Made by a program: the position numbers and the translations under genes. This document shows positions 39,984 through 47,971 of a stretch of DNA of 64,000 bases, one piece after another. The first letter of the stretch is position 1. Each line of letters opens with the position of its first letter. The stretch spans positions 27,758 through 91,757 of the forward strand of contig PIYN01000001.1 of NCBI GenBank assembly GCA_003601775.1, read 5' to 3'. This DNA is from Candidatus Bathyarchaeota archaeon (GTDB lineage Archaea > Thermoproteota > Bathyarchaeia > TCS64 > PIYN01). The notes beneath the pieces are model-generated. The model saw only the letters and a program-made list of their open reading frames with translations. It was not told the DNA's origin and searched no databases.

Positions 39984-40139
39984 GGCTTCTCCCCTTTAAA
40001 GGTCAGTACCCAAATTAAGAAAAATCTTTACTATGATAACTTGAGTAGGCTTCTTCTCTTTATTATCTACAACATTGGCTATAGTTTTCCTTCCTCAAAA
40101 GATAGGTTTGATGAAAGACTTCGAATAGAATGGGGAGGT

Positions 40140-43898: not shown

Positions 43899-44789
43899 TT
43901 GGGTGAGACATTGATTAAGACAAATAAGGACAAGCTTGTCGTACAAGAGGTACTAGGGAAGATCTCTCATCCTGTAATGATTCAGAGTCGGGGCTATGTG
44001 ATCACCTGGGACGGCAAACCCAAGATCGGCTTGGGAATAGGCGGAATAAAATACAACGTTAAGGTGGGCGACCCCATCTTCGGTTGGCCTGAGGCAGAGT
44101 ACCTGGAGCCTGGCGTGGCCCTAGAGGGGATCGATGATCGGGCTAAAGGAGCGCTGCTCAATCTGAGTTGCGTCGGGAACGAAGTTAAGGTGATAAGTGG
44201 GGAAGGAAAGGGCCTTAAAGGCGTAGTGACCGGGAAGGCCGGATACGCTGGGGCGCCGGCGCACGTCCTCGCACATTTCTCGGATGAGGACTTAGAGAAG
44301 CTGGCCATCGGGGACAAGGTCCGTATCAAGGCAGAGGGCGTGGGTCTAGAGATCAAAGGCTTTGAGGGCAAGGTATTCAATGTATCACCCTCCTTCCTAG
44401 AATCCCTTGATCTTGAGCTAGAGGACGGGGAACTCATAGTACCCGTTGTTAAGGAGATCCCCGCGTACGCGATGGGCTCAGGCGTTGGTGGGGGAGCAGC
44501 GATGAGCGGGCACTGGTGTATACAGACCTGCCCACCTGAATTGGTGAAGGAATTGGGCTTAGAGGATCTAAGAATCGGCGATTTAGTGGCATGTAGAGAT
44601 ATCCTCATGTTATACGGTAAAGGTTACTATAAGGGGGCCATAACAGTCGGTATCATCGCGTTCGGTGCAAGCGATCGAGGGGGACATGGAGCAGGCGTCT
44701 TCGCTATCGCCGTATCGAAGGAGGGGAAGATTCGACCGAGGATCGATCCTGAAGCAAATGTAGCGAAGTATCTAGGACTGAAGAGATGA
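43899..44789 (+). CDS. conserved hypothetical protein, paralog A of a tandem pair (possibly a DUF4438-like family, unverified)
   Basis: 296 aa, soluble, Gly-rich motifs (IGLGIGGIKYNV, AMGSGVGGGAAMSGHWC, GASDRGGHGAGV). Collinear along its whole length with the downstream gene. Lower GC than the genome. Confidence 0.45.
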   Translation: MGETLIKTNKDKLVVQEVLGKISHPVMIQSRGYVITWDGKPKIGLGIGGIKYNVKVGDPIFGWPEAEYLEPGVALEGIDDRAKGALLNLSCVGNEVKVISGEGKGLKGVVTGKAGYAGAPAHVLAHFSDEDLEKLAIGDKVRIKAEGVGLEIKGFEGKVFNVSPSFLESLDLELEDGELIVPVVKEIPAYAMGSGVGGGAAMSGHWCIQTCPPELVKELGLEDLRIGDLVACRDILMLYGKGYYKGAITVGIIAFGASDRGGHGAGVFAIAVSKEGKIRPRIDPEANVAKYLGLKR

Positions 44790-45658
44790 GGGTTATGCTG
44801 AAAACGAATAAGGACCGATTGGTCAAGATGGCGGTGATGGGGGAAGTTGTCCACCCCTCATCCAGAGGCTACACCGTTGATTTTGAGGGCAAGCCTAGGA
44901 TGGGCTTGGGAATGTCAGGTATCAAGTACAACGTCACGGTCGGCGATCTATGTTACGGGTGGGCGGAGGAGGAGCATATGGAGCCCGGCCTCAGCATAAG
45001 TAACAGGGATCCAAATGAGAATGCCGCCCTCTCAGTCTTGGCATGTATCGGTAACGAGGTAAAGGTAGTGACAGGGGAGGCGAGAGGCGCGAAGGGGTAT
45101 ATCATCGGGAAACATGGGAACTTCATGGCCTGGCTCAGAGAGGAAGATCAGGAGAAGGTCAACATAGGGGATAAAATCCAGGTGAAGGCCTGGGGGGTTG
45201 GACTTAAGATCGAGGGCTTCGATGATGTTAAGGTGAATAAACTAGACCCAGACCTCTTGGAGAGGATGGGAATCACCGTGGAGAATGGAAGACTCGTGGT
45301 GCCCGTCGTTAACGAGTTCCCCGCTTATATCATGGGCTCGGGTTATGGGATGTGGCCTGTAACCATAGACTATGACATTCAGACCACCTGCCCTGAGGTC
45401 TATGATGAGCTAGGGTTGAAGAAGCTACGTTTCGGAGACATAGTCGCATTAAAGGACCAACTAAACTGGTGGGGACGAGGGTATTACAAGGGAGCCATCA
45501 CTATAGGTGTTGTTATCCATGGTTGGAGTTCCCACGCCGGACATGGACCGGGGGTGACCACCCTTCTGAGCACGAAGTCCGACAGGATCATCACTAAGAC
45601 CGACCCGGATGCGAACATAGCCTATTACCTCGGGATAAGAGAGAAGTCCAAGAAATGA
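44786..45658 (+). CDS. conserved hypothetical protein, paralog B of tandem pair (translationally coupled to paralog A)
   Basis: 290 aa. It shares the motifs GLGMSGIKYNV, VPVVNEFPAYIMGSG and GYYKGAITIG with paralog A. The ATGA overlap at 44786-44789 indicates coupling. Confidence 0.45.
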   Translation: MRVMLKTNKDRLVKMAVMGEVVHPSSRGYTVDFEGKPRMGLGMSGIKYNVTVGDLCYGWAEEEHMEPGLSISNRDPNENAALSVLACIGNEVKVVTGEARGAKGYIIGKHGNFMAWLREEDQEKVNIGDKIQVKAWGVGLKIEGFDDVKVNKLDPDLLERMGITVENGRLVVPVVNEFPAYIMGSGYGMWPVTIDYDIQTTCPEVYDELGLKKLRFGDIVALKDQLNWWGRGYYKGAITIGVVIHGWSSHAGHGPGVTTLLSTKSDRIITKTDPDANIAYYLGIREKSKK

Positions 45659-45868: not shown

Positions 45869-46450
45869 TTGGCGATTCCCATGAACCTTTGGCGAGATCT
45901 TCCTGCGGGAGACGATCCACCGGACCTCGTGAATATGATCGTGGAGGTGATAAGCGGCTCCAGGGATAAGTACGAGTACCATAGGGAGTGGGAGGTCTTC
46001 GTCTTGGATAGGGTCCTTCACTCTTCTGTGGTCTTCCCCGTCGAGTACGGCTTCATCCCCCGGACCTGGTCAGAGGACGGAGATCCTCTGGATATCATGG
46101 CCCTCTCCTACGAACCCGCGGAGGTCGGGTGCCTCCTAAAGGTGCGCCCCATCGCCCTCCTCGTCATGGAGGATGAGGCCGGCGTGGACCATAAGGTCCT
46201 ATCCGTCCCAGTGAGCGACCCAAGGTTCGACGGCTACACCGACCTTGAGGATGTCCATCCCCACCTCCTCAGGGAGATCAGGGAGTTCTTCGAGATCTAC
46301 AAGAGGCTCGAGCCTGGAAAATGGGTGAAGTTCAGGGGCTGGAGAGGGGCAGAGGAGGCGAAGAGGCTCATCAGTCATGCGATCGACCTCTACCAGAGGG
46401 AGTTCACTGGGCCTTCCAGCACATCTGGTAGAGGTCGGAGAAGTGAATGA
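45869..46450 (+). CDS. ppa: inorganic pyrophosphatase (family I)
   Basis: Conserved PPase core VNMIVEVISGSRDKYEY...DGDPLDIMAL...EDEAGVDHKVLSV. The likely start is the ATG at 45881. A TATA-like ttatttattt lies ~25 bp upstream. Confidence 0.85.
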   Translation: MAIPMNLWRDLPAGDDPPDLVNMIVEVISGSRDKYEYHREWEVFVLDRVLHSSVVFPVEYGFIPRTWSEDGDPLDIMALSYEPAEVGCLLKVRPIALLVMEDEAGVDHKVLSVPVSDPRFDGYTDLEDVHPHLLREIREFFEIYKRLEPGKWVKFRGWRGAEEAKRLISHAIDLYQREFTGPSSTSGRGRRSE

Positions 46451-46765
46451 GATCCCCACCACACTCCTCCTCCAAGAAAGACTTATGCATCTTCTCAAAC
46501 ACCCCAGCAGATTGTGGGATATGAAAAATACGAAGGAACCATACACCTCAGATTAACATAAATCCCATAAAAATTGACGATCTTGGAACGTGAATTTGGC
46601 AGTTCTCTCCTCGCATCATAGAGGAGATCCGAAAGAACTTCGCCTCCCTGGAACTCTTTAACATATATTATGGAATATTATAATTAAATTAATAAATTTT
46701 TAATCAATTTCTTTAAATTTTAAGGCTTTATCGTTTCCTATAGATTATAAAATGGATGTTCCATT

Positions 46766-46819
46766 GTCTGAATTGAATCAGACGATATGCCCCAATGTGA
46801 GACATTGGGGTGTCTGATT
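46766..46819 (+). ncRNA. structured element in AT-rich leader upstream of ftsZ (nested or alternative hairpins); function unknown
   Basis: Seen in sequence: an inner perfect hairpin ccccaatg-tgaga-cattgggg (46790-46810). It is enclosed by the stem aatcagac (46776-83) / gtctgatt (46812-19). An upstream gtctg (46766-70) could alternatively pair with cagac (46779-83). Confidence 0.3.
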
Positions 46820-46849
46820 GGTTAAACGACTTTAACCTCGGTATAGGAG

Positions 46850-47971
46850 GTGGGAAGGATGGTGTTGATGGAGAAGGCGCTGAGGTATACGCGCCATGAG
46901 GTTACTGAGAGGGGGCTGATAGAGCCCGGGCGGTGTCGGATCCTCATCCTGGGGGTAGGCGGAGCAGGGAATAACACCTTGGATAGACTGATGAGGCTGG
47001 GCGTCGGCGGGGCGGAGTGCATCGCCATAAACACGGATATACAGCACCTCGAGATGATCCACGCGGACAAGAAGGTCCTCATAGGGGAGAAGGTGACCAG
47101 GGGTCTCGGCGCCGGGGGGAAGCCCAAGGTGGGCAGGGAGGCGATACTGGAGAGCAGGCGCAAGATCGAGAACCTCGTCGAGGGCGTGGACATCGCCTTC
47201 GTCACGGCGGGGATGGGCGGCGGGACGGGGACGGGCGCGGCGCCGGTGGTGGCGGAGATATGCAAGAGGAAGGGGGCGATCGTCGTCGGCGTCATCACGA
47301 TGCCCTTCAGGCACGAGAAGGGGCGGATAGACTTCGCGGTGCAAGGCCTCACGGAGATGAGGAGGGCGACAGATACCACGGTGATCATAGACAACAACAA
47401 GCTGATGGACCTCGTCCCCCAGCTCCCCATCAACGACGCCTTTACCCTGGCCGACGAGATCTTGGCGAACATGGTCAAGGGGATCGTGGAGACGATCGCC
47501 CTCCCGAGCCTCATAAACCTCGACTTCGCGGACTTCAAGACGATCATGGAGCAGGGGGACGTCGCCATCGTCGGCCTCGGGGAGTCCGACGCGCCGAACA
47601 GGGCCGAGGAGGCGGCGAGGAATGCCATGAGCCACTTCCTCCTCGACGTGGACTACGAGGGCGCCAACGGGGCCCTAATCCACATCTCAGGGGGGAAGGA
47701 CCTGACGCTGGGGGAGGCTGTGAGGACGGCGGAGATCGTGACGGAGATGATGGACGAGAAGGCGATGGTCATCTGGGGTGCGAGGGTCGATCCATCCCTC
47801 GGGGACCTGCTCAGGGTCACCCTCGTCCTGACGGGGATACGTTCACCCCAGATCCTGGGCGGATACCGCTTCCCGAGGACGGAGCTCTTCAACCTCGAGC
47901 CCTACGCAGGACCGGAGGAGCCGCTGAAGATAGACCTCGGCCTCTACCAGATGGAGGGAAAGGTGAAGTAG
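46850..47971 (+). CDS. ftsZ: cell division GTPase FtsZ (tubulin/FtsZ family)
   Basis: Tubulin signature GGGTGTGAAPVVAEI. N-terminal GVGGAGNN, the T7-loop region and an FtsZ C-terminal domain. GTG start. Confidence 0.85.
   Translation: MGRMVLMEKALRYTRHEVTERGLIEPGRCRILILGVGGAGNNTLDRLMRLGVGGAECIAINTDIQHLEMIHADKKVLIGEKVTRGLGAGGKPKVGREAILESRRKIENLVEGVDIAFVTAGMGGGTGTGAAPVVAEICKRKGAIVVGVITMPFRHEKGRIDFAVQGLTEMRRATDTTVIIDNNKLMDLVPQLPINDAFTLADEILANMVKGIVETIALPSLINLDFADFKTIMEQGDVAIVGLGESDAPNRAEEAARNAMSHFLLDVDYEGANGALIHISGGKDLTLGEAVRTAEIVTEMMDEKAMVIWGARVDPSLGDLLRVTLVLTGIRSPQILGGYRFPRTELFNLEPYAGPEEPLKIDLGLYQMEGKVK

Follow-up and report, generated by a model that had tools for sequence, protein, structure and literature searches.

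Translational leaders that occlude the Shine–Dalgarno (SD) sequence are found in bacteria and archaea and comprise ribosomal-protein autoregulatory leaders, RNA thermometers, and translational riboswitches. In Escherichia coli, translation of the cell-division gene ftsZ is controlled in trans by the small RNA DicF, through antisense pairing. Few cis-regulatory RNAs are known in archaea; we know of none that controls archaeal cell division and, to our knowledge, the control of archaeal ftsZ described so far is transcriptional, via CdrS and CdrL. The present work concerns the long non-coding gap that precedes ftsZ in a 64,000-nucleotide (nt) stretch of DNA from a Candidatus Bathyarchaeota archaeon (contig PIYN01000001.1; hereafter the window), and the RNA structure that adjoins the SD within it. 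This putative leader is similar to the SD-occluding leaders in being a structured 5′ untranslated region (UTR) beside the ribosome-binding site, with competing helices, one of which pairs a pyrimidine-rich strand with the SD, but it bears no similarity to any Rfam 15 family, and the gene that it would regulate is the division gene ftsZ of an archaeon. With DicF it would share post-transcriptional control at the ftsZ ribosome-binding site; it differs from DicF in that the mRNA itself carries the structure, and in coming from an archaeon.

The gap comprises 408 non-coding nt (46451–46858). Its left border is the end of an inorganic pyrophosphatase gene (PF00719, 45869–46450), and the ftsZ gene downstream carries the PF00091 and PF12327 domains. 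The ftsZ start was placed at ATG 46859, and not at the GTG 46850 of a mechanical open reading frame (ORF) list, because homologues begin with MVLMEKAL there and the public protein (P0001) has 370 aa. The SD of the gene is GGAGGTG (46846–46852). A preliminary description, made from the sequence alone, had drawn attention to a long AT-rich non-coding gap at this place, and the composition of the window agrees with it: the GC content of 46401–46800 is 0.378 against 0.607 for the whole window, 46654–46753 is the lowest-GC 100 nt of the window (0.15; runner-up 0.29), and 46547–46821 is its longest stretch without any ORF of 80 aa in six frames. We consider it rather probable that the gap is the control region of ftsZ, made of promoter or operator DNA followed by a structured 5′ leader in which alternative pairings probably govern translation.

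The comparison set consisted of 23 species-level loci found by FtsZ, nearly all of them labelled Bathyarchaeota or Bathyarchaeia, and on its FtsZ sequence the window is placed in the Bathyarchaeia. In the 16 loci with an FtsZ 69–77% identical to that of the window, a low-GC gap of ~350–450 nt with conserved blocks precedes ftsZ; the same is true of L144, the nearest distinct relative (84% identical), so that all 17 relatives at 69–84% identity have the gap. In five loci at 59–65% identity (L014, L016, L017, L018, and L023) its place is taken by an ORF for a cdrS-like ribbon-helix-helix protein (MKLITIYLPEPY...). The conserved blocks extend along the whole gap in alignment A1, and the window shares them from ~46527 on. 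The gene upstream of the gap varies among genomes, being a divergent radical-SAM-type gene in L005 (judged by eye from its translation), and the pyrophosphatase gene is absent from all 23 related loci fetched; the gap therefore travels with ftsZ.

In the relatives, an RNA three-way junction of ~80 nt adjoins the SD. It is built of a helix, P1, which closes two hairpins, P2 with the loop GAGACA and P3 with the loop GACAA, and the 3′ strand of P1 abuts the SD. The hairpin stems vary between species and the two loops are constant; they are followed by GGT..ATCTGG, the SD, and the ATG. When folded singly, 19 of 19 relatives gave the same three-way junction (L118 only roughly), and no leader-type sequence lacks the motif (A)TG(A)GACA(A)T. 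The P2 and P3 loops have G-N-GACA-A in common, the first four pairs of P3 nearly always carry the purine on the 5′ side, and complementary copies of TCAGAT and ATCTGA recur.

The stems do covary in homologous regions, the property that the preliminary description had singled out for checking. In a model-fitted alignment (A4), 86% of the cells are paired and 13 of the 22 pairs have changed on both sides, against 6.4 ± 1.4 in shuffled alignments (0/500 as high) and 4–11 with slid partners. A plain MAFFT alignment not fitted to the structure (A3) gave 87.7% paired cells against 30–42% with slid partners, six doubly changed pairs against 3.5 in shuffles (6/500), and 14 doubly changed cells against 4.9 (0/500). 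Complementarity is kept through changes such as CTCAGAT/ATCTGAG vs CCCGGAT/ATCCGGG, and GGAGCG/CGCTTC vs GGGGG/CCCCC vs GAGGGG/CCTCGG. A4 also contains ~25 G-U cells, which would be A-C mismatches on the other strand, and in L145, a contig of the same species as the window, a C-to-T change converts one G-C pair of P2 to G-U, as fits an RNA on the + strand; both place the RNA, as read from sequence variation, on the ftsZ (+) strand. RNAalifold gave no consensus on plain MAFFT alignments of the whole leader, in which the variable stems are misaligned, and recovered P2, P3, and the inner P1 pairs on a trimmed set.

A covariance model (R1) built from 13 relatives finds every main-group copy at 53–89 bits, L008 and L118 scoring weakly; in 323 kb of related DNA it detected nothing convincing as a second copy. 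A metagenome scan with a conserved 21-nt block of the gap, described below, returned 120 stretches containing 12 true copies (seven new sequences), every one in front of ftsZ, and the element is found only before this gene. The Rfam search proposed in the preliminary description brought no assignment: at gathering and at permissive thresholds, no Rfam 15 family matches the gap of the window, L005, or 14 related loci. The best match in the gap, GA-cis, reached 17.5 bits against a gathering score of 34.7 (E = 0.64) and is noise, and the only match in the window is the tRNA-Ser at 935, which was also the only gene found by a tRNA and tmRNA scan. Literature searches for an ftsZ leader, riboswitch, or structured RNA, in archaea or in Bathyarchaeia, yielded nothing comparable. 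The element is an undescribed RNA family, so far restricted to one clade of Bathyarchaeia.

Two further structural candidates in the family were rejected. A pseudoknot of GTAGTCTA with the GAGACA loop has one compensatory case (L007) and is broken in L003, L004, L015, and L080 (by eye). A hammerhead, K-turn, or box C/D reading of GAUGAG...CUGA fails in that CUGA is not kept (CCGG in L001) and the motif is in a hairpin loop, not in the junction.

In the window, the leader takes the following form.

46752–46764, + strand: hairpin 1 (ATGGA-TGT-TCCAT), without conservation; L144 lacks it, and in L145, of the same species, one G-to-A substitution disrupts it.
46766–46783, + strand: hairpin 2, GTCTGA (46766–46771) with TCAGAC (46778–46783), the alternative hairpin of the preliminary description; it competes with P1 for 46778–46783.
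46776–46819, + strand: P1, closing P2; its 5′ strand is the counterpart of the family's TCAGATAATACC and its 3′ strand falls in the family's P2–P3 junction.
46790–46810, + strand: P2 hairpin, CCCCAATGT / ACATTGGGG, carrying TGAGACA (46798–46804), the most conserved motif of the family.
46820–46837, + strand: P3 hairpin, GGTTAAA-CGAC-TTTAACC, counterpart of the family's GACAA-loop hairpin, outside P1 in the window.
46834–46861, + strand: translation start region, with an anti-SD AACCTC (46834–46839), the SD GGAGGTG (46846–46852), and the ATG (46859–46861).

The hairpins lie where the preliminary description had seen them, the inner stem being slightly longer: CCCCAATGT (46790–46798) and ACATTGGGG (46802–46810) form 9 bp around the loop GAG. 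The outer stem, AATCAGAC (46776–46783) with GTCTGATT (46812–46819), is a perfect 8 bp, and the upstream GTCTGA is able to pair with the TCAGAC inside its 5′ strand. Two hairpins, hairpin 1 and P3, come in addition to those listed there. Hairpin 1 is probably a chance or local DNA feature; the loop of P3 is altered in L145. As RNA, 46740–46850 folds with −36.0 kcal/mol (z = −4.66; 0/200 shuffles as good), and its reverse strand about equally well (z = −4.96), so that folding energy alone does not give the strand.

On sequence grounds, the leader of the window is a rearranged and diverged local version of the family leader. The 21-nt block, the GTCT element, TCAGAC-GATAT, the TGAGACA motif, and a P3-like hairpin are all retained, the hairpins (46752–46837) lie directly 5′ of the SD and ATG on the same strand as ftsZ, and (A)UGAGACA(A)U is presented by the P2 hairpin as in the relatives. 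The topology differs, with the 3′ strand of P1 (46812–46819) located between P2 and P3, so that P1 closes P2 only and no three-way junction results. Of the nested layout of the preliminary description, the hairpins are thus present, but their exact nesting is specific to the lineage of the window, the family consensus being the three-way junction. L144, which scores 18.4 bits with R1 (E = 0.009), looks intermediate.

The alternative pairings were compared on an RNA spanning 46742–46873. The state with hairpin 2 (−41.5 kcal/mol) and that with P1 (−40.4 kcal/mol) are 1.1 kcal/mol apart and make up 71% and 29% of the predicted ensemble at 37 °C; the P1 state is predicted to win above ~50 °C, and P2 to be formed always (base-pair probability 1.00). 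In L144 the hairpin 2 pairing is preserved: a double change has turned one G-C pair into A-U, and two pairs are G-U. Of 20 family sequences, 18 to 20 are able to form any given one of the four hairpin 2 core pairs, and all six pairs together have 75% of their cells paired against 14–45% with a slid partner. The mutually exclusive hairpins proposed in the preliminary description are hence borne out in outline, by two states close in energy and by the double change that preserves the upstream pairing in L144.

A second competition is predicted at the SD. Once the coding start is included, the probability of P3 falls to 0.05, since it is displaced as AACCUC (46834–46839) pairs with the SD; the predicted pairing joins 46835–46839 with 46847–46851 and leaves 46847–46850 with an unpaired probability of 0.00–0.05. 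Across the family, the mean unpaired probability of the SD ranges from 0.04 to 0.91 over sequences and two start models, and the SD is often mostly paired, which hints, as far as such models allow, at a low SD accessibility in the family. The 3′ strand of P3 might act as an anti-SD, and the purines on the 5′ side of the P3 pairs fit such a double use of its 3′ strand.

The part of the gap upstream of the leader is of a different nature and consists of four regions.

46451–46526, + strand: spacer after the pyrophosphatase stop, lineage-specific, with no counterpart in the relatives, whose upstream gene differs.
46527–46650, no strand assigned: upstream control region, with blocks common to the window and the relatives in A1, e.g., ATACGAAGGAAC (46528–46539) and TTAACATAAAT (46553–46563).
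46651–46730, no strand assigned: extremely AT-rich core, in which A/T tracts recur in 11-nt phase (TTAATAAATTT, 3.1 copies, 46689–46721), with a TATA-like box, TTTAAATT (46712–46719).
46731–46751, + strand: conserved 21-nt block, TCGTTTCCTATAGATTATAAA (family consensus TCGTTCCCCAGATGTTATTAG), which includes a second TATA-like box, ATTATAAA (46744–46751).

The 21-nt block is near-invariant and free of insertions and deletions in 20 sequences. An AT-rich hexamer (TGTTA[A/T] in most) is located 19 nt 5′ of it in nearly all of the 27 leader-type sequences aligned, with L022 as the exception, and GTAGTCTA and TTCAGATAATACC follow it in the family; its spacing is rigid both to the upstream box and to the downstream elements. 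In the window, the block has ~7 differences from the consensus (a search allowing 6 or fewer substitutions did not find it there) and lies ~45 nt 5′ of P1, with TTTAAATT at the same spacing as the family box. The block does not co-evolve with the SD region, and together with the rigid spacing this leads us to infer that it is a promoter or operator element acting as DNA. A role for the block as an anti-SD was rejected: duplexes of a block with its own SD are no better than those drawn across species, and the C-run has been lost in L006.

In archaea, the centre of the TATA box lies ~26 nt before the transcription start. The box at 46712–46719 would accordingly predict a start near 46742, and that at 46744–46751 would place it near 46775, at the very foot of P1. 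The tRNA-Ser and pyrophosphatase promoters of the window have GAAAGG followed by TAATTTAAT or TTATTTAT, which mildly favours the second TATA-like box; the pyrophosphatase promoter contains the box GTTATTTAT, similar to ATTATAAA. The AT-rich core may also terminate the pyrophosphatase transcript, because the first run of five T after that gene is found there. The blocks of 46527–46650 would be DNA-level regulatory sites. This region also contains the hairpin AGTTCT-TCTCCTC...GAGGAGA...AGAACT (46601–46639, −18.6 kcal/mol in the window), which was discarded as a conserved RNA, being lost in the ~90% identical L145. A scan for bacterial sigma-70 promoters and intrinsic terminators remained at chance level and is irrelevant to an archaeon. 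The 46451–46526 spacer, in which A1 shows no conserved block common to the window and the relatives, is present in the same-species contigs L145 and L146. Within it, 46495–46506 (TCAAACACCCCA) is 92% complementary over 12 nt to 46806–46817 (TGGGGTGTCTGA), on the 3′ side of P2 and P1; this is probably chance, since it is not kept in L145.

Taken as a whole, 46651–46751 would be a curved, AT-rich stretch of promoter DNA that contains the two TATA-like boxes and the 21-nt block and is probably bound by the basal transcription factors, possibly also by a regulator. The last 85–115 nt of the gap would be transcribed as the structured 5′ leader of the ftsZ mRNA, which would set the level of FtsZ translation through competing pairings: hairpin 2 against P1, and P3 against the pairing of its own 3′ strand with the SD. 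A factor would shift the balance between them, most likely a protein recognising two GACA loops, as is suggested by the G-N-GACA-A that the P2 and P3 loops share. In this scheme the transcription start, the operation of the switch, its trigger, and its on/off direction are the parts that we infer. The idea of a regulatory structured 5′ leader, first raised in the preliminary description, has gained from the comparison: a covarying RNA is found at the same place in the relatives, on the ftsZ strand, with no terminator before the ATG.

Several results weigh against this scheme. Pairing of the P3 3′ strand with the SD is possible in ~13 of 21 sequences, no better than in shuffled ones (z ~0). Covariation of hairpin 2 in the main family does not exceed the level of shuffles, its columns hardly varying, and the 21-nt block shows the lack of co-evolution with the SD region noted above. 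R1 gave no match in the window at 46731–46861 with E ≤ 10, either with default filters or with filters off. A family-like inner P1 could form in the window between TATGCC (46786–46791) and GGTATA (46840–46845), but the family-like fold has −18.5 kcal/mol against −34.0 kcal/mol for the best fold, a cost of ~15 kcal/mol. Judged by sequence, the two promoter positions fit equally well, and the second would leave hairpins 1 and 2 outside the RNA. Finally, the structure could be constitutive, serving mRNA stability or as a ribosome standby site, rather than a switch.

This last alternative, a structural leader without a switch that protects the 5′ end of the ftsZ mRNA from exonucleases or presents the SD, with incidental alternative pairings, agrees with the three-way junction being the minimum-energy fold of the relatives without any ligand, and with the anti-SD pairing tests, which were not significant. 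We regard it as unlikely, since mere stability would leave unaccounted for the strong conservation of the loops GAGACA and GACAA, the preserved purine/pyrimidine strand orientation of P3, and the recurrence of complementary TCAGAT and ATCTGA copies, all of which point to more than simple stability.

A metabolite riboswitch, in which the three-way junction would bind a small molecule (e.g., a nucleotide tied to growth or to the FtsZ GTPase cycle) and decide on access to the SD, would likewise explain a covarying junction with conserved bases right beside the SD and alternative pairings close in energy; with no known class matched, it would be a new one. The architecture is similar to that of aptamers of the purine riboswitch type, in which a P1 helix in a 5′ UTR closes two hairpins of 5–9 bp with conserved terminal loops. 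In contrast to those, the junction strands are short and vary in sequence and length, the loops are not mutually complementary, and the conserved bases are in the terminal loops and helices instead of a pocket. Moreover, the window, L144, L008, L118, and the L012 group have a remodelled architecture in an unchanged gene context, and the element was found before a single gene, ftsZ. The unconserved junction bases and the remodelled topology of the window and L144 make this reading improbable.

There is similarly only a slim chance that everything acts at the level of DNA, the palindromes being sites at which transcription factors bind the ftsZ promoter and the RNA having no functional structure. 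Sequence conservation at fixed spacing and without indels, as in promoter elements, is indeed seen for the 21-nt block, the TGTTA box, and the GTAGTCTA block, the reverse strand folds equally well, and archaeal ftsZ genes are under the control of the transcription factors CdrS and CdrL (PMC7439475, PMC8406309). Operators keep their sequence, however, and the stems of the junction change theirs while remaining complementary; G-U pairs are tolerated on the + strand only, and the helices vary in length as the upstream blocks do not. Because the stems covary, the DNA-level explanation fails for the junction; it probably holds for 46527–46751.

A chromosomal replication origin or origin-associated DNA, an option that the preliminary description had kept and for which the lowest GC content of the window (0.15 over 100 nt) and the phased A/T tracts would supply an unwinding element, is very improbable, as no repeated origin-recognition-box-like element was found (the longest direct repeats have 11 nt), the only inverted repeat above 17 nt (24 nt) is AT-rich and 71% matched and a perfect 14-nt one is inside the pyrophosphatase ORF, no Orc1/Cdc6 was present among ten ORFs of 347–473 aa or the immediate neighbours (not every ORF of the window was scanned), the minimum of the cumulative GC skew is elsewhere, near 40,000, and the region accompanies ftsZ whatever the gene upstream.

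An attenuator of the terminator type and a discrete small non-coding RNA, both proposed earlier, found no support: 46300–47000 contains no terminator-like site and 46752–46858 no run of five T, and the structure is a leader rather than a separate small RNA because no terminator-like site separates it from the ATG. A conserved upstream ORF, leader peptide, or N-terminal extension of FtsZ was discarded since neither frame nor length is conserved; ORFs that begin at the P2-loop AUG fall in all three frames and range from 4 to >41 codons, the window reading AUG-UGA and L007 having AUA at that site. The public FtsZ entries P0003, P0005, P0008, P0013, P0014, P0035, P0037, and P0050 (386–394 aa) are 15–24 aa longer than the others, probably through mis-called starts at an in-frame P2-loop AUG, as in L015 and L020. 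The leader gives reason to distrust the extended ftsZ starts annotated in some relatives and, for genome annotation, accounts for an otherwise puzzling AT-rich gap of ~400 nt.

The pair cdrS-ftsZ2 is widely conserved in archaea (PMC7439475, PMC8406309) and occupies the same genomic slot, directly 5′ of an ftsZ gene. A regulator ORF stands there, whereas the window and its 17 leader-type relatives have the RNA structure in its place. The gap shows no sign of a degraded cdrS gene: in tblastn with five Bathyarchaeia CdrS proteins, neither the window nor any leader-type locus gave a match at E ≤ 0.01, relaxing the threshold to E ≤ 50 brought up nothing in the gaps but scattered noise, and no cdrS ORF or remnant is present in the gap or fetched flanks of the window and the 17 relatives. 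In the five loci that have it, the stretch ~150–260 nt upstream of ftsZ shows the cdrS-like ORF directly before the gene and, ahead of the ORF, three direct AACATATT(T) repeats overlapping a TATA-like box, which may be a regulator site; the window has TTAACATAAAT (46553) and TTAACATATAT (46658).

We propose, tentatively and as a rather doubtful extension, that an RNA switch in the ftsZ leader took over the regulatory slot of cdrS in this clade and couples FtsZ translation to a signal, conveyed by a protein reading the GACA loops or by a small molecule. If true, this would be the first description in archaea of an RNA that acts in cis to regulate cell division. The presence of a conserved, covarying leader only before ftsZ, in the place of cdrS, suggests that FtsZ levels in this uncultured and globally abundant group of archaea are set post-transcriptionally. 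The leader also provides a concrete RNA of ~80 nt, in defined variants, for work in vitro, though the organisms cannot be grown.

Some additional features of the related loci were observed. The first ftsZ codons of leader-type loci, ATGGTTCTCATGGAGAAGGC (e.g., L009:4004–4023, the first 20 nt), are almost invariant including synonymous sites and can form a UUCUC-AUG-GAGAA hairpin; the window has ATGGTGTTGATGGAG instead. The gap of the relatives (e.g., L009:3740–3830) contains, 5′ of the AT-rich core, a hairpin of variable sequence, a T-run, and the inverted repeat TTTTTCGCC..(17–19 nt)..GGCGAAAAA, and TTCGAAAAnnTCGAAG plus CTTTATAAG occur near the divergent gene. These upstream elements may represent operator sites or belong to a second small transcript; no RNAalifold consensus was obtained for this region. 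L010 (DATLAV010000070.1), labelled “Patescibacteria group bacterium”, holds a Bathyarchaeia-type ftsZ with the full leader (88.9 bits), and its label is probably a binning error.

In the window, tandem paralogous DUF4438 genes (43899–44789 and 44786–45658), overlapping by 4 nt, lie just 5′ of the pyrophosphatase gene. Within the last 70 nt of the pyrophosphatase ORF there is a perfect 14-bp inverted repeat, CGACCTCTACCAGA / TCTGGTAGAGGTCG (46384–46397 / 46424–46437, 26 nt apart), which could be an mRNA 3′ stabiliser or a terminator-like hairpin.

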